DNA from: a virus
Direction: 5' to 3' (one strand)
DNA length: 64,000 nt
IMG/VR virus record: IMGVR_UViG_3300047494_000104
Location: 4,343 to 68,342 of that record
A program made the position numbers and the translations under genes. The first letter of the stretch is position 1. Each line of letters opens with the position of its first letter. This document shows, one piece after another, positions 4,198 to 21,466 of this stretch. The notes under the pieces were generated by a model. The model saw only the letters and a list, made by a program, of their open reading frames with translations. It was not told the DNA's origin and ran no database searches.

Positions 4198-4938
4198 TCA
4201 CGATTTGTTAACCTCGAGCGTGATCGTGTTGACCATCGTGCCGGAGGATTTGAACGAGCCGGCCGGGTTTTCGTGGATGAACCAGACGTAGCAGCCGGCG
4301 GCGCGCATCTTATCGGTGAACTTCTGGAAAGCGGCGCTCGTGGTATTGCCCGCCATGATGGAAACGAGCTTACCTCCATCGTGCAGCCATTCCAGCGCCC
4401 GGAGGACGTGCTTGATGTCGTGGCCCTTGGTAAAAGGCGGGTTCATCACCACGCGCTCGACCTTGGACCGAGGCATCTCGAGGAAGTCCATCTCGCAGTA
4501 GAGAAGCCCTTTGCTCTCCAGAACCTTGCACGCGACGGGATCCTTCTCGACGCACTTCACCCAGCGCGCGCCAGCTTGCACGCAGAGCATCGCCAGCGCC
4601 CCGTGACCGGCCGACGGCTCGAGCACCGTGCGTTCTTCCACGTTCGCCAGCTCGACGACGTAGGCTGCCAATTCCGGCGGGGTGTAGAACGCCTGGTTCG
4701 CTTGCTGGATGCTGGTGGACTCGCCGGTCTCGAGGACCATGCCGAGCAGCGGCCGCGGATCGGAAACGAAAACGTGCGCCTTCGCGCCGCGATTCCATTT
4801 GCCGCCGGCGTTGGTCAGCACCTTGTTGACGCGCTCGTAAAGGCCGCGGTCGAGTTGTTGAGGGAGAACGACGCTATTTGCGCCGATGGTGGAGCGCTCG
4901 AGGACTGAGCGCACGTCGGGTGTCAGTGTGGTTGGCAT
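4198..4938 (-). CDS. DNA N6-adenine (amino) methyltransferase
   Basis: AFYTP, motif I VLEPSAGHG, motif IV VMNPPF, GSFKSSGTMV. Confidence 0.9.
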   Translation of the reverse strand: MPTTLTPDVRSVLERSTIGANSVVLPQQLDRGLYERVNKVLTNAGGKWNRGAKAHVFVSDPRPLLGMVLETGESTSIQQANQAFYTPPELAAYVVELANVEERTVLEPSAGHGALAMLCVQAGARWVKCVEKDPVACKVLESKGLLYCEMDFLEMPRSKVERVVMNPPFTKGHDIKHVLRALEWLHDGGKLVSIMAGNTTSAAFQKFTDKMRAAGCYVWFIHENPAGSFKSSGTMVNTITLEVNKS

Positions 4939-5248: not shown

Positions 5249-6430
5249 TCAGTTCACGTCGATGTAGATCATCTCGCCCCACGGGATGATGCCGAATTTG
5301 TTGATCGATCCCCAGAGCACGGGATAGCCGGCAGGCTCGTCATGGGGAAATTGGCCCGCGAGGTCGGTGAGGTAGATAAGAGCGATAGGGTTGATGTCGC
5401 TCGTCTCCACGTAATCGAACACGGGCCGGAAGTCAGTGCCACCACCGCCAACCGCCTTCAGCTCGATCACGTCGCCGGCCTCGTACTCCTTCACCTTGTT
5501 GACCTCGGCGTCGCAGTATATGACGACGAGCTTTTCGGGCAAGCAATCGTCGATAATCCCCTGCATCTCGGAAGCGAAGGCTTGGAGCACCGTATCCGTG
5601 ATGGATCCCGACGTATCGATCGCGACGACGATGGGCCCCATACGCGTCCCGGTCCTGGTCGGCAAGTGAAGGCCGAGATGGATCAGTGACCGCTTGGACT
5701 TGGCAAACGAGTAGTCGTCACCGGCCGCCACGACGTTGAAGAAGTGACGGAGCTGCTCACGCCACGGCACGCGCGGGTCGACGACCTCTTCGATGAGGCG
5801 CTGGAGCATCTGCGGCAGTTTGCCGGCTTGGTTCGCGACGTTGGCCGCCTGGACGACTTTTACCTGCCAGTCGGCTTTCTCTTCCTCGATTTCTTCCGGG
5901 GTGCCTTGAGCCGGCATTACCTCGCCGGGTGACTTGAGTTCTCCCGGCTCATCACCCCCACCGTCGCCCTTACCTGGCGGCTCGACGGGCAGGAGGTTGT
6001 AAATCTCCTCGACACTGAGATTGTCGAAGGCTGGATTAGGCGGGCACCACTTGTCGAGATCGGCCAGCTCGAAGTAATCGCGAAGCTGGGCGTCGCCGTT
6101 GGCAATAGCATGAGCATTCGAGGCCCGCATGACGTTCGCCACCGCGTAGTCGCACGCCTTGTTGTACCGCTTCGGCTCCCTTCCCTCCATGCGGAAGGTG
6201 TGCTGCAGCGCGCCGTGAAGGATGCACTCGCAAATTACCGTCCGCATTTGCTTCTTGGACAGCTTGGCCGCGTGGTCCGGGTTGTACTCGATCTTCTCCC
6301 CGTCCATGCGGAAGGTGGGGATCGCCTTGTTCTCGACCGTCTTCAACGACACCAGCAACGAGCCGAAGAACGGCAGGTCGATGATGATCGTCGCGCGGGC
6401 GAATTCAATGGCTTCGTCGATTGATTTCAT
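5249..6430 (-). CDS. DUF2201-type metallopeptidase-like + vWA domain protein
   Basis: PFFGSL, YNKACDYAVA, MIDAS DTSGSI, GGGGTDFRPVF, YLTD; adjacent to MoxR. Confidence 0.88.
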   Translation of the reverse strand: MKSIDEAIEFARATIIIDLPFFGSLLVSLKTVENKAIPTFRMDGEKIEYNPDHAAKLSKKQMRTVICECILHGALQHTFRMEGREPKRYNKACDYAVANVMRASNAHAIANGDAQLRDYFELADLDKWCPPNPAFDNLSVEEIYNLLPVEPPGKGDGGGDEPGELKSPGEVMPAQGTPEEIEEEKADWQVKVVQAANVANQAGKLPQMLQRLIEEVVDPRVPWREQLRHFFNVVAAGDDYSFAKSKRSLIHLGLHLPTRTGTRMGPIVVAIDTSGSITDTVLQAFASEMQGIIDDCLPEKLVVIYCDAEVNKVKEYEAGDVIELKAVGGGGTDFRPVFDYVETSDINPIALIYLTDLAGQFPHDEPAGYPVLWGSINKFGIIPWGEMIYIDVN

Positions 6431-6590
6431 AGTTTAGCCTGTTGTTCGATTCCAATTTCGGTGAGTTCTGCGATGTCGTTTATCTCGTCGCCGAGAGGCC
6501 CAAATTTAACGAGCTCCAGACAATCCCACTCGCCTTTAATTCGAGCGCGGATTGCCTTGAGGGCTTCGATGGCCGTGAGTTGAGGTCGGT

Positions 6591-7583
6591 TCATGCGAAG
6601 AGGTGGCCGTGCTTAATCAGCCATTGGTTGAACGCCTTGCAGTTGGTCATGTCCAAGTTGCGCACCGCCATGTCCTTCACCGAGCACATCTCGAACTCGT
6701 TGGGCATCCGGCTCAGGTATTGGAACACGTTGTCCGCGTTCTTCGGCGTGACGTGCCGGGCGAGCGCCGTGGCGATGGCATACAAGGGCGCTGGATCCGT
6801 CGGCACCTTGGCCGTCATCGGCTTGGCGAGGATCTCGTCCATCGAGGGCAATTCTTGGTAGACCTTGAGGAAGCCATAGAACTCCGGCGCCGCATGAGGC
6901 CCAACGAACCCGTTCACGATCTGAAGGGACGTCTCGTTGTTGTTCTCCTTCATGTCGTGCGACAAAAACTCCCAGGTCCGAGGGCACGCAAACGGCGTGT
7001 TGTCCTTCCACTTCGCAGGATCGAAGTTCATCAGCATGCCCGGCTTGAAGCGCAGGAACGCGACGATCTCCGGAATGATGCGCCCGGTGTTGGCGCCGTA
7101 TTCCTCGAAGTCCTTCTGGCTGACCTCGAGCGTTTGCATGTTGAGGCGACTGACCAATGCGCTCGGCATTTTGTAGCTCACCGCCCGGTCGGACTGACTA
7201 TTGCCGGCCGCCATGACGCTCCATCCCGGAGGGAGCTCGTACTCGCCCAGCTTCCTGTCCAAGGTAATTTGGTACGCGGCCGCCTGCACCGCTGTCGTTG
7301 CGGCCGTGATTTCGTCGAATAAAACGATTCCCGATCCTTCCGTCGGGAAAAAGTCCGGCGTCATCCAGCGCGTCTTGCCCGTCTTCAGGTCCGGCATCGG
7401 AATGCCGCGGAGGTCGACCGGATCGAACATGTTCAGTCTCACATCTCGAAACTGAATGCCGAGCTCATCCGCGGCTTGCCGGATGATTGATGATTTGCCG
7501 ACGCCGGGCGGCGACATCACCATGAACGGCTGTTTCGATCGGTAAAAACGCTTTGCTGCTTTCTTGAGGTCTTTCGGTCCCAT
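6591..7583 (-). CDS. MoxR-like AAA+ ATPase
   Basis: SPPGVGKS, DPVDLRGIP, VLFDE, AAGN, PRTWE. Confidence 0.92.
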   Translation of the reverse strand: MGPKDLKKAAKRFYRSKQPFMVMSPPGVGKSSIIRQAADELGIQFRDVRLNMFDPVDLRGIPMPDLKTGKTRWMTPDFFPTEGSGIVLFDEITAATTAVQAAAYQITLDRKLGEYELPPGWSVMAAGNSQSDRAVSYKMPSALVSRLNMQTLEVSQKDFEEYGANTGRIIPEIVAFLRFKPGMLMNFDPAKWKDNTPFACPRTWEFLSHDMKENNNETSLQIVNGFVGPHAAPEFYGFLKVYQELPSMDEILAKPMTAKVPTDPAPLYAIATALARHVTPKNADNVFQYLSRMPNEFEMCSVKDMAVRNLDMTNCKAFNQWLIKHGHLFA

Positions 7584-7604
7584 ATGCTTCCTTTGGTTTG
7601 TTGT

Positions 7605-8048
7605 TTACTGCCTGATCACTTTGACGATGGCGGCGAGTTCCTCGAGCGCCTCGTACTTGTCTGCCCAGTCCTGGGCCTCCTGCTTCGCGCGGGTTAAAAT
7701 CTGTTTGCGGAGATTCTTATCCGCCAAGGCTCGCGTTGTACTGACGTAGGCGCGTTCCTGTGCATCATCCTCGCCGCCCAACGTCCTCGAACTGACGAAC
7801 ACGACGCTTTGAAAAGCCCTCACCGGCGCGCCTTCCTCGCGAACGATCATCACCGTTCGTATGAGTTGCCGCGCCTGCCATAGGCGATACTCGCTAGCTG
7901 CCTTGCTGTCGTCCCACTGAAAAAACCTGTGAAGCGGCGAATCGACCGGCTTCGCCTCTTTCACCACCGCTTGCGGCGTTAGGGTGCCGTCCCGTTTTTC
8001 TATCTTATCGAAATAGTTTTTGATGATTTCGTCTTTTGTTTTGCTCAT
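7605..8048 (-). CDS. Small protein directly downstream of the pentamer array (candidate accessory subunit)
   Basis: GTLTPQAVVKEAK...SPLHRFFQWDDSKAA..YRLWQARQLIR; start ATG at 8048 after AAAGGA. Confidence 0.8.
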   Translation of the reverse strand: MSKTKDEIIKNYFDKIEKRDGTLTPQAVVKEAKPVDSPLHRFFQWDDSKAASEYRLWQARQLIRTVMIVREEGAPVRAFQSVVFVSSRTLGGEDDAQERAYVSTTRALADKNLRKQILTRAKQEAQDWADKYEALEELAAIVKVIRQ

Positions 8049-8062
8049 ATTTTTGTCCTTTG

Positions 8063-8580
8063 CTGCCATTCCGTTACACTCCATTCCAACGCGGTCCTGT
8101 CCCGGAGCTTCCTTTCCTATCCAATTCTGCCCATGCGCTACAATGCTCTACGGTTCTCGACGTTACTTGCCGTTCCCTTGCTGCCCATGTTCGCCGGTCC
8201 TGTCCGTCCTGTCCCAGGCTCGACCCTCCAGTCCTATGCTGGCTTGCCGTGCCACGGCTCTCCTCGTCATTGCTCTCGCGTCCTGACCGTTCCGGTACTG
8301 CCCGTGCGTGCGATGCCATGCCTTTCCCTAGCTCTGCTCTCCAGTCCTTTACTGCCACTTCCCGACATTGCCCTCCACCCTCTCGATTCCAAGACGGTCG
8401 ATTCCAGTGCTGGCTTTCCGGGCCTTACCTTGCCGCTCACAGCGATTTCCCGCCCCGCCTCTGCTGGCATTCCTTTCCACTGATTCCGGTCCACTTCCCG
8501 CCGGTGCTGTGCTTTCCTTTACTGCCTATCCACTACACGGGTGGCCAATTCATTGCCCACCCATCCCTTTCCCGCCTTTT
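8063..8580 (-). ncRNA. Array of 9 candidate guide RNAs (5-nt period GNA/GNC-NN, each unit ending GGCAG/GCCAG); VIPR-like
   Basis: Unit ends at + strand 8063, 8127, 8181, 8239, 8298, 8352, 8410, 8464, 8522; by hand count 76 of 85 full pentamers start with G and 31 start with GGA. Confidence 0.88.
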
Positions 8581-9290
8581 CAAATTACGCGAAACATGCC
8601 CCACGAGCCGTTGCACTCGGGGCGATATTCAAAGATGCCAACGCCGAAGCCAGCGACGTTGAAGAGGTTGGTGATCTGGCCGGGCGTGATCACCCGCGAG
8701 TTGTACTCGACGAGGAACTTCACCCGCCAGGTCGGGAATTGAGCGCGAAACCGAATGTCGGACGTGCCCATGCCGACGCGGACCATGTCCGAACGCATCG
8801 AAGCGCCGTGCTTGCGCTCGAATTCGATCTCGTTCCAATACTTGGAATCTTCTTCGGTGATCGGCGTTTTGATCTCCGGCACTTCGATCTTGAGCATGTC
8901 GCCCTTGATGTGGAACGCCCGGCGCATCGCCGTCTTCTGGAGTTCGACGTCGTTCGCCGCGGTTACCGCCGCGTTCTTGAGCGACACGGCCGGAATTCCG
9001 AATCCCGATCCGTCCGGAAGACGATAGAGCGACGCCTTAAAGTCCTCCACCGGATTCCGCTTTTCGCGGCCCTTGCTGGCCTCGCCGAGCTGCTTGTCGA
9101 GCATCATCTTCTTGGCCTTTTCGCTCCAGGCGTGTACGACGAGTTGAGACGTTCCCTCGATCGTGACCTGAAAGGTAATCAGGTCAAGGCGGACGTCTTG
9201 GATTTGCAGCATCTCCGCAACGAGCTTTCCGCCTTTCGGCGTCGATCCGTTACGGGTTGCTTTGAGTTTGGGTGCTGATTTGACTGGCAT
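8580..9290 (-). CDS. Stand-alone Cas7/RAMP-like protein (Vipr-like)
   Basis: N-terminal strand VTIEGTSQLVVH, IPAVSLKNA (cf. RAMP IPGSSLKG), C-terminal G-rich loop AGFGVGIFEYRPECNGSWGMF; abuts the array. Confidence 0.8.
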   Translation of the reverse strand: MPVKSAPKLKATRNGSTPKGGKLVAEMLQIQDVRLDLITFQVTIEGTSQLVVHAWSEKAKKMMLDKQLGEASKGREKRNPVEDFKASLYRLPDGSGFGIPAVSLKNAAVTAANDVELQKTAMRRAFHIKGDMLKIEVPEIKTPITEEDSKYWNEIEFERKHGASMRSDMVRVGMGTSDIRFRAQFPTWRVKFLVEYNSRVITPGQITNLFNVAGFGVGIFEYRPECNGSWGMFRVI

Positions 9291-9792
9291 GTTGTTCCTT
9301 TGGTTCTTTGTTAATCACGAATTCGACGAACATCGTCAGCGTCGTGAGCGCGAAGGCGATGCCTAAAGTGTAGATAATGGTGGCGACGAAGCGGTCGGCT
9401 CGATCGTGCGCGCAGAGGTTGGGTTTCTTCATAAAAGTTGGAGTTCGCCGCATGCAATCCGCGCGCGCTGGAGAAGTCGATTGCCGATCGAGTCGACGAC
9501 CTTGGGGCAATAGGTCGGAAGCATCGAGGACGTACAGAGCCGCCAATACGCTCCGACGCGGGTGAAGCATTCGTACTCCAGCTTGCCGTCATCGTCTCGG
9601 AAAGCCTCTGCCCTGAACCACACGCTATCGATCTCGAATTCCTCGCTCGAAATGATGCCGAGGTTCATGCCATTGGCATATTGGAGCTTGGCTTTGCTCA
9701 CTCGCGCCCCCTCGACGAGGGCGCGAGTCCGAGCCATTGCAAGCCGCGCGCATCCAAGCGATTCCCTGCCGAGGGATGCCATTGAGCGGACG

Positions 9793-10668
9793 TCATGCAG
9801 CCTCCGGTATTGGACCGAGCATTTCAAGAATATTCGACGCCCTTTGCAGCGCCTCTTTCCTGGTGAAAACGTCGTCGCGGATTTCGTCGGGACGCAGCTT
9901 TCCGATAGATCCCATAATCTCGCGGCGGACCTGCTCGAGGCGTTGGTCCCCGGTGACATTGAGCGAGGGAATCAAATCGCAAATCTCGCGGATGTTCCCA
10001 ACCAGAGAATCTCGAAATACTGCCGGCTTTCCATCGGATCCCTTCTCGTTCAACTTATTAACGAAGTTTGCCAGCTTCTCGCCGAGCCGGGCGTAGAGCT
10101 CGTTCTCGGCCGCCTTTTCGGCTTCGCTGATGCGCTCACTGATCTCGCGCCGCATGGATTCGATCTCCTGGGCCGGCAGGTCGACGCGAATGTCGCCGCC
10201 GTCGGGAACCGGTGCCCGAATGATGCGAAACGAGAAGTGACTCGCGATCGTGGTCTCATCGGGATAGTCCGCTTCGTTGAACGTGCCGTTGAGATCGATG
10301 CGCGCTTGGCGCAGCTTCTCTGGCCACTTGGCGCAAAACCCGGCGGCCGCTACTTCGCCCTTTTCGATCAGGCCGCGGATGTTCTTCATGTAAACGTCGT
10401 GGTGCTTGCCGGGCAGCATGCGGGCTCCGTCGTCACCCCACGGCACGGTATTTTCGCGGTGGAACGTTCGGATCTCGGAGACGATCTTGTTGACCATCTG
10501 GAGGTCGGGATCTTCCTTCGACACCAAACGCTTCACCACGCGCAGGGCATCGCTCTTGGTCCGGTGATTTTCGCTCACCTCCGTGGTGAGCTTCTTGTCC
10601 GTCTTCGTGCCGGAAAACACGCTGATCTTGAGGTTGACCAGCAAACAGCTATCCGAGATTTTGGGCAT
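9793..10668 (-). CDS. DUF3150-like protein, often near phage MoxR-vWA modules
   Basis: LVNLKIS, TVPWGDDGARMLP, FNEADYP, FRDSLVGN, LNVTGD. Confidence 0.65.
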   Translation of the reverse strand: MPKISDSCLLVNLKISVFSGTKTDKKLTTEVSENHRTKSDALRVVKRLVSKEDPDLQMVNKIVSEIRTFHRENTVPWGDDGARMLPGKHHDVYMKNIRGLIEKGEVAAAGFCAKWPEKLRQARIDLNGTFNEADYPDETTIASHFSFRIIRAPVPDGGDIRVDLPAQEIESMRREISERISEAEKAAENELYARLGEKLANFVNKLNEKGSDGKPAVFRDSLVGNIREICDLIPSLNVTGDQRLEQVRREIMGSIGKLRPDEIRDDVFTRKEALQRASNILEMLGPIPEAA

Positions 10669-10688
10669 AATTGATGTTTTGTTAGTGT

Positions 10689-10919
10689 TTAGTTATTCCC
10701 GGAAACGCTTCCTGCATTGCCGGTGAAATTATTGAACCGATCGACCATGACTTGGGACATCCTGGAAATCTCGAGCAATCCTTCCGAAATGCTCGCGACC
10801 GTCTTGGATTGGTCCATGACCGTCTTCCCATCGGCGCTCAGCTTCATTTCGAGCGTGGGCAGTTGGTCAAAAGGCGCAGTGAGTCGGAACTTAAAAACGT
10901 GGGGGGGCGGTTTGGACAT
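10689..10919 (-). CDS. Hypothetical protein
   Basis: Abuts the clamp gene. Confidence 0.55.
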   Translation of the reverse strand: MSKPPPHVFKFRLTAPFDQLPTLEMKLSADGKTVMDQSKTVASISEGLLEISRMSQVMVDRFNNFTGNAGSVSGNN

Positions 10920-12143
10920 TTACGAGACCCTCATCGGCATGATGACGATCTTCTGGTCGTAGTCGTTGGGACTGTCGATCGTGATCGGCGCCATCTCGTT
11001 CTCGAAATTCATCGTGACGCGGCCGCTGGTGAGCGATTCGAGCGCCTCCTGCAGGAACGTCGCGTTGAGCGAGATCTTGAGCCGCTTCGTCATTCGGCCA
11101 TAGAACGTGCAGGCGCCGACGGATTTGCCCTTGTCCGGAATCTTCTGCTCGAGCTCGACGACGTGGTTGAAAAAGTCGAAGCTCATCGTGTCGTTGTTGC
11201 AGCCCTTCATCCGGGTGGATTTGATGGCGGCGATGAACTTCTCGCGGGGAAGCTCGACCCAGTCCTTCAGTGACGTCGGAATCACTTGGCGCCAGTTCGG
11301 GAAGTTTCCCTCGATGAGCTTGGAAGTGATGATCGTGTCGACGAGGTGGAAGCGAATGAAGCCGGGCCAGGTCGCGTAATCCTTGGCGCCCTCCGGCTTT
11401 TCACTACGTTCCGACTGATGGCTGATCAGAAGGTCTGTCGGGATGCGCTTCTTGAGCTTCTCCAGCATGTAGACCGTGGCGTCGGGAATGATCGCGTTGA
11501 TGTCATTCGGAACAGGTCCGCCCAGGCTGATGCTGGAAGTGGCCAAGCGCCGGCCGTCCGTGGCGATCATAGTGGTGGACATCGGCCGTTCCGGAATCTC
11601 TTTGACGAAAGGCTTACCGTCGGAATCTTTGGCCTTCTCCTTGCGGGCCGGCTGATAGGTCAGGTGCTCAAAGCAGATGCCGTTGAGCACATACCGCGAG
11701 GCGTCCTTCGACATGGCGTAGGAGGTGAGCCGGAGTGCGTCTTGAAAGACCTGGCCGGACATGCCGAAGATCGTCGCGTCCTTGAGCTTAATGGACGGCG
11801 GGACGTCGTTCACATCGAACATGAGAGCTTCCATCCGCTGGCCGCCACAGATGACCTCGACGATGTTCTTCGTCTTCACCAAGAATGTGACGGTCTCCTC
11901 ATTGGCGCCGGCGACGAAAGCCCGGAGATCCTTCCACGGCAGAACGATGTTGAGATCGCCCTCGCACTGGAGGAACGTCTCGATCGTGGAGTCGAGGTTG
12001 GTGGTGGCGAGCGTGAGCACACGGCCCAGCGCGTTGATATGGACCGCGTCGAGTATGGGCAGCGTCGATCCCTTACCCTTCTTGTTCACGGCCAGCCCGA
12101 CAATGTCGAGCGCCGCCAGTATCAACTTGCGTGATGTTTGCAT
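10920..12143 (-). CDS. dnaN: DNA polymerase III beta sliding clamp homolog
   Basis: TLPIL, LATTNLD, SRYVLNGI, IATDGRRLA, KLIEGNFPNWRQVIP, C-terminal VIMPMR. Confidence 0.92.
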   Translation of the reverse strand: MQTSRKLILAALDIVGLAVNKKGKGSTLPILDAVHINALGRVLTLATTNLDSTIETFLQCEGDLNIVLPWKDLRAFVAGANEETVTFLVKTKNIVEVICGGQRMEALMFDVNDVPPSIKLKDATIFGMSGQVFQDALRLTSYAMSKDASRYVLNGICFEHLTYQPARKEKAKDSDGKPFVKEIPERPMSTTMIATDGRRLATSSISLGGPVPNDINAIIPDATVYMLEKLKKRIPTDLLISHQSERSEKPEGAKDYATWPGFIRFHLVDTIITSKLIEGNFPNWRQVIPTSLKDWVELPREKFIAAIKSTRMKGCNNDTMSFDFFNHVVELEQKIPDKGKSVGACTFYGRMTKRLKISLNATFLQEALESLTSGRVTMNFENEMAPITIDSPNDYDQKIVIMPMRVS

Positions 12144-20660: not shown

Positions 20661-21285
20661 AGGTATCGCTGGCCTCGGGTTTCTTGTTGTAGCGGGACCG
20701 AGGCAAATTCAGTCCTGCTTTCACCGCGTCACAAAGTTTGTGGATCCCCTGCTTGGTGATCCCGTACCGCTTGGCGATTGTATCGAGGGAGACTCCATCC
20801 GATAGCGGGTGACCGGTGGTCTGGACGATGCAGTCCACGACGCTTTTCGGCTCCTGATATTTGGCGACAAAAAGCAGCGCGGTGACCAGGCCGTGCGATG
20901 CGGCGAACAACGGGCCGGAGCGCATTCGGCTGAGATTGTCGATATGGACGTCGCTCAAGCCGAACCGCGTCTGGAATTCTTTCACCCGCGTTCCGACGCT
21001 TTGCTTGGTCACCCCGTTCCAGCCTGCGATCTGGTTGAGGCTGAAACATGCATAAACCGGGTGCTTCAGGCCATAAATTGCCGCATCGATGCATAAATGC
21101 GGCCGGGCGTCCTCTTTGACGATGAGCAATCCGCGGATCAGAAACTCGAGCGCCAGGGCATCCGGGCAAGATATGGTCGTCTTTGTTTCGAGCCGTCTGT
21201 CCACTTCGTCATAATCGAAACTGTAGGAGGCGTTCTCCGTGTTCCGGCTAGGATCCCTTCCAGCAGAGTCGTGCGGGTCGGACAT
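20545..21285 (-). CDS. Protein with two sigma70-region-4-like HTH motifs
   Basis: SLNQIAGWNGVTKQSV and SLDTIAKRYGITKQGI. Confidence 0.65.
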   Translation of the reverse strand: MSDPHDSAGRDPSRNTENASYSFDYDEVDRRLETKTTISCPDALALEFLIRGLLIVKEDARPHLCIDAAIYGLKHPVYACFSLNQIAGWNGVTKQSVGTRVKEFQTRFGLSDVHIDNLSRMRSGPLFAASHGLVTALLFVAKYQEPKSVVDCIVQTTGHPLSDGVSLDTIAKRYGITKQGIHKLCDAVKAGLNLPRSRYNKKPEASDTYAQSNTHTAPVGDAARGPSLSSYALPAVGGGLCPAGVS

Positions 21286-21338
21286 TGACGGGAAGGTATC
21301 GGGAAAGAATTCTTTCGGCAAGATATTCCTCTCGAATG

Positions 21339-21382
21339 AAAGAAAAAGGCCGGCCAAAACTCAGAAAAGTTTTGACCGGCCT
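21339..21382 (-). terminator. Terminator/attenuator-like hairpin
   Basis: AGGCCGGTCAAAACT / AGTTTTGGCCGGCCT plus TTTTCTTT on the minus strand (G.U pair only on that strand). Confidence 0.6.
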
Positions 21383-21466
21383 AGGGGAAACTGCCAATGT
21401 TCCGTTACCAGGCGGCACACTCGACATGAAAAATCTACCAATTTACGGCTCTTCGTCAATGGTAAT

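Follow-up and report, generated by a model that had tools for sequence, protein, structure and literature searches.

VIPR, a CRISPR-like RNA-guided DNA silencer, was first described in 2026 (10.64898/2026.04.26.720920). As described in that preprint, VIPR has a step of 5 nucleotides (nt), reads its target with a 1-nt skip, and occurs in seven published types; confirmation by small-RNA sequencing is limited to the ribozyme-type and single-vrRNA architectures, and the processing of staggered arrays of guides (vrRNAs) is unproven (10.64898/2026.04.26.720920). A companion preprint treats the Vipr protein of Escherichia phage SUSP1 by cryo-electron microscopy (cryo-EM) (10.64898/2026.04.26.720927), another study deals with VIPR in phage-satellite competition (10.64898/2026.10.15.759431), and a language-model survey lists the non-canonical VIPR triplets GAC/NN, CAC/NN, WGT/NN, and TGH/NN (10.64898/2026.10.21.760802). 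The field is months old, and bench tests are confined to SUSP1 and the P. fulva clade. Here we analyse a 64,000-nt stretch of virus DNA (the window; positions 4,343 to 68,342 of IMG/VR record IMGVR_UViG_3300047494_000104), in which the minus-strand locus 7605-9290 is very probably a phage VIPR system of a GGA type. It comprises a gene for a 236-amino-acid (aa) Vipr protein (vipr), an array of guide units, and a 147-aa accessory gene (vap) (Table 1). The kind of system is published; of interest in this member are a purine-rich constant triplet together with an altered G-loop, a predicted guide against rival vipr genes that would spare the phage's own, and support for the 1-nt-skip code in abutting arrays.

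The Vipr protein has no Pfam match but belongs to phrog_4652 and has 592 homologs at E <= 0.001. Its AlphaFold model, computed from 43 sequences, is confident (predicted local distance difference test score [pLDDT] 87.9), and a Foldseek search with this model has nothing but chains of Csm3, Cmr4, or Cas7-11 in its top rows (best E 1.7e-6), whereas the sequence itself drew only a chance ribosomal match among PDB chains (E 0.54). As modelled, the protein has a RAMP fold. A family profile run on the SUSP1 genome (NC_028808.2) hit exactly one place, the gene AVU07_agp039 (E 5.2e-11). After it come a 146-aa gene and 530 nt of GGY pentamers that carry structured tails; this is the SUSP1 VIPR locus as published. 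Direct alignment of the two proteins by hhalign covers 62 columns with 97% probability (E 9.7e-11; BLASTP E 8e-5). It pairs SUSP1 R138, D177, W178, and R179 with R182, E221, Y222, and R223 of the window protein, and both R182 and R223 are invariant across the 43 family members. The four SUSP1 residues have been assigned to the two guanines and the position-3 pocket (10.64898/2026.04.26.720927). The G-loop reads CGVGDWRP in SUSP1 and VGIFEYRP in the window. On these alignments the window protein is homologous to SUSP1 Vipr. A preliminary description of the locus, made from the letters alone, had called the protein RAMP/Cas7-like and had noted a resemblance to VIPR; the model and the aligned G-loop bear out the former, and VIPR is indeed a published system.

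Between vipr and vap lies a gap of 531 nt (8049-8579) that is noncoding. The open reading frames (ORFs) that span it (208 and 116 aa on the plus strand, 94 and 75 aa on the minus strand) are purely mechanical and gave no Pfam matches, and the period of the tract is 5, not 3, in keeping with the earlier view that the gap holds no credible ORF. Identity at lag 5 within the gap is 0.422, versus 0.295 +/- 0.019 in 2000 mononucleotide shuffles (z = 6.9), which is the outcome that the autocorrelation check proposed at that stage had anticipated, and the strongest Fourier peaks of G and of A are both at a period of 4.87. When the full 64 kilobases (kb) were scanned in 200-nt sliding windows, all 16 minus-strand windows in the top 0.5% fell inside 8001-8600, and the maximum period-5 power in the array was 6.2 against a median of 0.36. 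In the same scan the intergenic region upstream of vipr (9291..9792) did not rise above background. The plus-strand maximum, a G signal with a power of 2.1 (median 0.37), lies at 21160-21440 and probably reflects composition only.

On the minus strand the tract divides into nine units of 54-64 nt that end in GGCAG or GCCAG, all of which we recovered as first described. The nine G[GC]CAG ends lie at 8522, 8464, 8410, 8352, 8298, 8239, 8181, 8127, and 8063, and the unit lengths in this order are 58, 58, 54, 58, 54, 59, 58, 54, and 64 nt. The units were parsed independently by dynamic programming that maximised G at pentamer positions 1 and 2, so that the counts for these two positions lean upward, while positions 3-5 were outside the objective. 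The parse gave 94 pentamers and three 4-nt periods, one each in units 2, 4, and 7. Among the 85 non-terminal pentamers, 76 start with G, 53 have G at position 2, and 31 start with GGA; position 3 is A in 56, C in 24, T in 4, and G in 1, and there is almost no base preference at positions 4 and 5 (0.09 and 0.03 bits). Hand counts in the preliminary description (G-first and GGA pentamers, an A/C-dominated third base, two free last bases, three units with one 4-nt period) are identical to those of the parse.

One element of that description did not survive. Its "4-nt linker" at the start of each unit is really the remainder of a regular first pentamer (GTAAA, GCAGA, GCACT, and so on), whose first base is the G that closes the G[GC]CAG before it. 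Neighbouring units therefore overlap by 1 nt, counting this G in both units keeps the pentamer register unbroken, and the spacing is 5n+4 (54, 59, or 64 nt), or 58 nt where one period has 4 nt. The first unit begins at the G of the vipr stop codon, which is the first base of the array, and a ribosome site for vap (AGGA) lies within 8049-8062, immediately 3' of the last GGCAG. In arrays of related loci, too, GGCAG marks the boundary and the spacing is 5n+4, with units of 44, 49, 54, 59, and 64 nt. The 1-nt overlap looks like the arrangement named "staggered array" in the legend of fig. S18 of the VIPR preprint (10.64898/2026.04.26.720920). No Rfam family was found in 7000-10000, and the predicted fold of the array RNA is not significant (z -1.44; 9 of 100 shuffles fold equally well).

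Homologs of the Vipr protein are regularly accompanied by such arrays. We fetched 317 loci (80 each from a first IMG/VR scan, a metagenome scan, and a second IMG/VR scan, 76 from genome contigs, and the window's own locus, L081), which reduce to 237 distinct loci; a first scan of genome contigs had returned zero relatives. A same-strand period-5 G-array was present in 73 of 80 IMG/VR loci that encode the homolog, and a homolog of the 147-aa gene lay directly downstream in 76 of the 80. Across the distinct loci, 199 of 237 have a period-5 array; the 38 array-less loci include 24 with less than 1200 nt downstream and 14 that lack an array despite room. A vap homolog is encoded in 276 of the 317 loci. 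The co-occurrence check suggested at the outset thus came out positive, and the recurrence of array and partner gene is among the grounds for identifying the locus as VIPR. Of the 237 loci, 139 have the array after vap, 34 have the window's order with the array between the two genes, and 24 have it upstream of vipr; more than one array occurs in some loci. Relatives for which DNA was retrieved are at most 51% identical (IMG/VR scans with the protein, the clade alignment, and P0012; metagenome scan), and nearer proteins (P0002-P0036; 57-74% identity) were seen at the protein level only. Among prophage copies, the named hosts span many phyla. Two cultured actinophages, Mycobacterium phage Saal and Gordonia phage ODay, encode homologs with 34% identity (genes 51 and 19, respectively). 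Both have arrays of GGCAG-delimited GGY pentamers, upstream of the gene in Saal (L349 1574-1823) and between genes 19 and 20 in ODay (L350 2622-2834), and all of the genes concerned are annotated as hypothetical. The biology could be tested in these two phages.

The code was tested by joining positions 4-5 of each pentamer (NN) with one free base between them, following the published 1-nt-skip rule, and searching both strands of 3.6 megabases (Mb) of related VIPR loci. Guide 1 matches 21 of 22 read positions in one related contig (L104), at the last 11 codons of the contig's vipr homolog (NGSFGMFHVV-stop). Thirteen sites reach at least 18 of 22, all at the same vipr gene end, and none does so under skips of 0, 2, or 3. 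The signal is specific to positions 4-5, as the other four registers gave 0-2 sites with a maximum of 17-18, and it depends on the order of the dinucleotides: among 200 NN-order shuffles none reached 21, the maximum was 19 (once), and at most two sites reached 18. The skipped bases coincide with codon third positions, as described for SUSP1. We therefore predict that guide 1 targets the vipr genes of rival phages at their last 11 codons (NGS[W/F]GMFHVV-stop). The window's own vipr end matches at 17 of 22, with mismatches that stem from serine being encoded by TCG, from Arg replacing His and Ile replacing Val, and from TGA in place of TAx; because it differs at five of 22 read positions, the phage's own gene would escape guide 1. 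No guide has a self-target at 80% or more across the 68-kb genome. An exact seed of eight NN from guide 1 gave 11 matches over IMG/VR, none of them in a vipr gene. The idea that the free dinucleotides read the target, first put forward from the letters alone, thus gains in silico support from guide 1.

For the other guides the same searches gave little. Guides 2, 4-7, and 9 have no site at 80% or more in the 3.6 Mb, and guides 3 and 8 have two sites each at 16 of 20, which is chance level and no better than under other skip rules. Over IMG/VR, exact 9-NN seeds of guides 6 and 9 had no matches, and an 8-NN seed of guide 5 had 16 matches whose extension (0-2 of 4 bases) is at chance level. An 8-NN seed of guide 6 matched 41 contigs (L351-L391; for example, L391 292-326), 10 times in the codons for the N-terminus (QLPAYLKNREMDDVTKSLMGG) of a protein that belongs to phrog_27714 and has no known function, with 19 of 22 positions plus the terminal AG. 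This match is a lead only and not significant, as the unbiased extension is 3 of 6 and the window phage is without a phrog_27714 homolog.

Guides of the related loci show the same rule. Under a 1-nt skip, 12 of 406 parsed guides give 442 matches at 90% or more, compared with none under a skip of 0 or 2, and none of the 442 lies in the guide's own locus. The matches fall mainly on conserved codons, those for EDMVRVGMGT (260 loci) and KQMKKAK (80) in vipr and for GLIRAVVAVY in vap (33 and 31 loci). Many guides of the family thus appear to target conserved codons in the vipr and vap genes of rivals while their own locus is spared, and this locus together with about 240 related loci lends in silico support to the 1-nt-skip code in the abutting ("staggered") array type. 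A reverse search with 547 relatives' guides on the window genome gave no excess over skips 0 and 2. Within vipr, the codons for SDMVRVGMGT (8760-8792, minus strand) are matched at 19 of 22 by a guide of one relative (L239) and, at the same place, at 14 of 16 by a guide of another (L209); by sequence, VIPR systems of relatives may in turn target the window phage.

The constant triplet sets this array apart. Its 53 GG-pentamers comprise 31 GGA, 19 GGC, 3 GGT, and no GGG, and so depart from a strict GGY, whereas position 3 in 10,600 GG-pentamers of 227 distinct related arrays is C in 66%, T in 25%, A in 7%, and G in 2%. The share of A in the window (58%, with C at 36%) is the highest of 228 arrays, the next being 43% and 42% (binomial p against 7.3% = 5e-22), so that the GGA bias, earlier proposed as a possible variant, is a real deviation from the relatives. 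Such a triplet is no bar to VIPR membership, since the preprint permits "a related consensus" and NNNGG repeats (10.64898/2026.04.26.720920). The deviation may go with a change in the G-loop, where the conserved acidic residue is preceded by Gly in 152 loci (position-3 A 5-6%), Cys in seven (21-23%), and Phe in the window, which in addition has Y for W at the guanine-stacking position; the resulting IFEY loop is common to the window and its four nearest protein relatives. The Cys-type loci are few and mutually related, so this correlation is a lead and not a result. We put forward tentatively, as a minority possibility, that the window Vipr is a natural specificity variant preferring a purine (A), or C, at position 3, and that the switch may lie in the G-loop. 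If this were true, recognition of the constant triplet would co-evolve with the G-loop, and rival VIPR proteins could not load each other's guides, which would give phages private guide sets and engineers orthogonal VIPR pairs. A natural case of a purine at position 3 also offers a direct test of the structural claim that purines are excluded there.

Compared with the staggered-array VIPR as described (10.64898/2026.04.26.720920), the locus shares a two-gene phage arrangement of vipr and vap, 5-nt-periodic abutting vrRNAs with a 1-nt overlap, the 1-nt-skip code, and guides predicted to act on other VIPR systems. It differs from that account in position 3, which is A or C rather than a pyrimidine, and in the place of the array, between vipr and vap. 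The type II VIPR of SUSP1 (AVU07_agp039 and agp038) has a homologous Vipr C-terminal half including the G-loop, the pentamer code, and a partner gene of similar size; however, its vrRNAs stand apart from one another, are about 100 nt long, and end in a structured 3' tail, whereas the window units are tail-less, and its triplet is GGY as opposed to GGM. The window Vap is not related to its SUSP1 counterpart vap1 (AVU07_agp038; BLASTP E 16, hhalign probability 0.1%). Because it lacks a vrRNA tail and its accessory protein is unrelated to vap1, the window locus is not a type II VIPR (SUSP1/P. fulva clade). The non-canonical arrays of the language-model survey likewise combine a Vipr-like fold with adjacent 5-nt arrays whose triplet is other than GGY, but GGA, GGM, GGH, and GGN are absent from the main text of that survey (10.64898/2026.10.21.760802), and the deviation in the window arises inside an otherwise GGY-using family. 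VIPR systems are expected on a virus or provirus, and the window belongs to an IMG/VR virus record (68,342 bases; CheckV completeness 77%). One DNA sequencing run contains the stretch and may be its source, and no RNA run is listed for it. Judged by sequence, the locus has the defining VIPR features save the strict GGY triplet, with four of the five guanine-contacting residues of SUSP1 Vipr paired by alignment.

Transcription, processing, ribonucleoprotein assembly, and silencing can be pictured by analogy with the SUSP1 work. The genes and the array would form a single transcript starting upstream of vipr; no minus-strand terminator was found inside the locus. Cleavage of the array transcript of about 520 nt, at the G of every G[GC]CAG or beside it, would give nine vrRNAs of 55-65 nt, with 11-13 pentamers each. 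One Vipr protomer would bind each pentamer, holding G1-G2-(A/C)3 by means of its RRM face, R182 (the thumb arginine), and E221-Y222-R223 of the G-loop, and leaving N4N5 exposed. The resulting filament would read double-stranded DNA (dsDNA) as NN-x-NN-x with one base skipped, occupy the target, and block transcription, and the winged-helix-like Vap would assist. The Vap protein, in phrog_15946, has a confident model (pLDDT 91.2) and no Pfam match, and it is probably a DNA binder of winged-helix-like type; a Foldseek comparison with PDB yielded no matches at E <= 0.001, and the ESM Atlas gave viral hypothetical clusters only.

Several observations weigh against a VIPR system. The 13 guide 1 sites are homologous to one another and not independent, and eight of the nine guides (2-9) are without a convincing target. 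The alignment to SUSP1 Vipr is limited to the C-terminal 62 columns, and the N-terminal halves do not align; SUSP1 H17, which also contacts the guanines, is outside the aligned part, and the family-invariant H53 of the window was matched to it by inference only. A promoter scan of 7400-9900 found no sigma-70-like site. In the cryo-EM account, the position-3 pocket of SUSP1 sterically excludes purines (10.64898/2026.04.26.720927), and as position 3 in the window is mostly A, identical binding cannot be assumed. Finally, the 4-nt periods and the low share of G at position 2 could mean erosion. The locus would then be a VIPR system in decay, with a relic array in which the A-rich position 3, the weak G2, and the 4-nt periods are products of drift and most guides are dead. 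A 1-nt deletion in three of nine units, G2 in only 53 of 85 pentamers, eight guides without a target, and the highest position-3 A fraction of 228 arrays would all fit. Decay is nevertheless unlikely, given that vipr and vap are intact with confident models, all nine G[GC]CAG boundaries are kept, and position 3 is non-random, its scarcity of G and T (5 of 85 together) indicating selection for A or C. Moreover, guide 1 still matches a rival vipr at 21 of 22 with pentamers of degenerate constant bases included, and the sharing of the unusual IFEY loop with the four nearest proteins suggests a fixed co-variant.

That the tract acts as DNA, as a phased binding array or centromere for a winged-helix protein rather than as guide RNA, would suit the winged-helix-like appearance of Vap and the position of the tract directly upstream of its gene. 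We regard this as very improbable: the signal is confined to one strand, which is always that of vipr, the array comes after vap and not before it in 139 of 237 loci, the variable dinucleotides match rival vipr codons only under the RNA-guide rule, and the homologous SUSP1 tracts are reported as RNAs bound by Vipr (10.64898/2026.04.26.720920). The top structural matches, Csm3 and Cmr4, might also point to what is left of a class 1 CRISPR-Cas locus (type III or another), in which a stray Cas7 happens to adjoin simple sequence unrelated to it, yet the window Vipr is only about 12% identical to the type III Csm3/Cas7 backbone (6IFN chain E, 9G9F chain E). The step of Cas7 filaments is 6 nt, whereas that of VIPR is 5 nt, and VIPR reads its dsDNA target discontinuously. 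Furthermore, the tract has a 5-nt period and no CRISPR repeats or repeat-spacer organisation, and among the six neighbouring genes scanned for cas families, a scan limited to those six, there was no Cas10, Cas5, Cas6, or other cas family. The source is a virus record, the protein has sequence homology to SUSP1 Vipr and 592 homologs of its own, and the related loci examined share the layout of two genes plus array. A CRISPR-Cas remnant is accordingly the least probable reading, with a likelihood close to negligible, and a phage VIPR system is by far the best account of the locus.

Table 1. Features of the VIPR locus and its guide units (window coordinates)
Feature	Position	Strand	Description
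vipr	8580..9290	-	236-aa Vipr protein, predicted stand-alone Cas7/Csm3-like RAMP
vrRNA array	8063..8581	-	Nine abutting guide units, 11-13 pentamers each, one-G overlap, each G[GC]CAG-ended
guide 1	8522..8581	-	NN string AA-GG-AG-TG-GG-AT-TT-CA-GT-GT-TA; predicted anti-vipr guide
guide 2	8464..8522	-	12 periods, one 4-nt
guide 3	8410..8464	-	11 pentamers
guide 4	8352..8410	-	12 periods, one 4-nt
guide 5	8298..8352	-	11 pentamers
guide 6	8239..8298	-	12 pentamers
guide 7	8181..8239	-	12 periods, one 4-nt
guide 8	8127..8181	-	11 pentamers
guide 9	8063..8127	-	13 pentamers
vap	7605..8048	-	147-aa accessory gene, probably a winged-helix-like DNA binder
Upstream intergenic region	9291..9792	-	Operon promoter presumably here; none identified

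The vap gene has an alternative, longer reading of 159 aa from a start at 8084. Directly downstream of it (5249-7583, minus strand) are genes for a MoxR-like AAA ATPase (phrog_1297) and a DUF2201 metallopeptidase/VWA protein; phrog_1314 carries the PHROGs label "HNH endonuclease", whereas Pfam gives a DUF2201_N and a VWA-like domain. Upstream of vipr (9793-12143, minus strand) are a gene weakly resembling DUF3150 (E 0.0043, which falls short of the Pfam cut-off) and one for a DnaN-type sliding clamp in which all three beta-clamp domains are present. Beside vipr in the 317 loci, the MoxR-like ATPase and the DUF3150-like gene recur twice each and the DUF2201 and clamp genes not at all; as they seldom or never recur there, these four genes are not part of the system. 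A small ORF without a Pfam match (9250-9432, minus strand; about 60 aa from an internal ATG) overlaps the vipr start from upstream and encodes a hydrophobic, membrane-like stretch.

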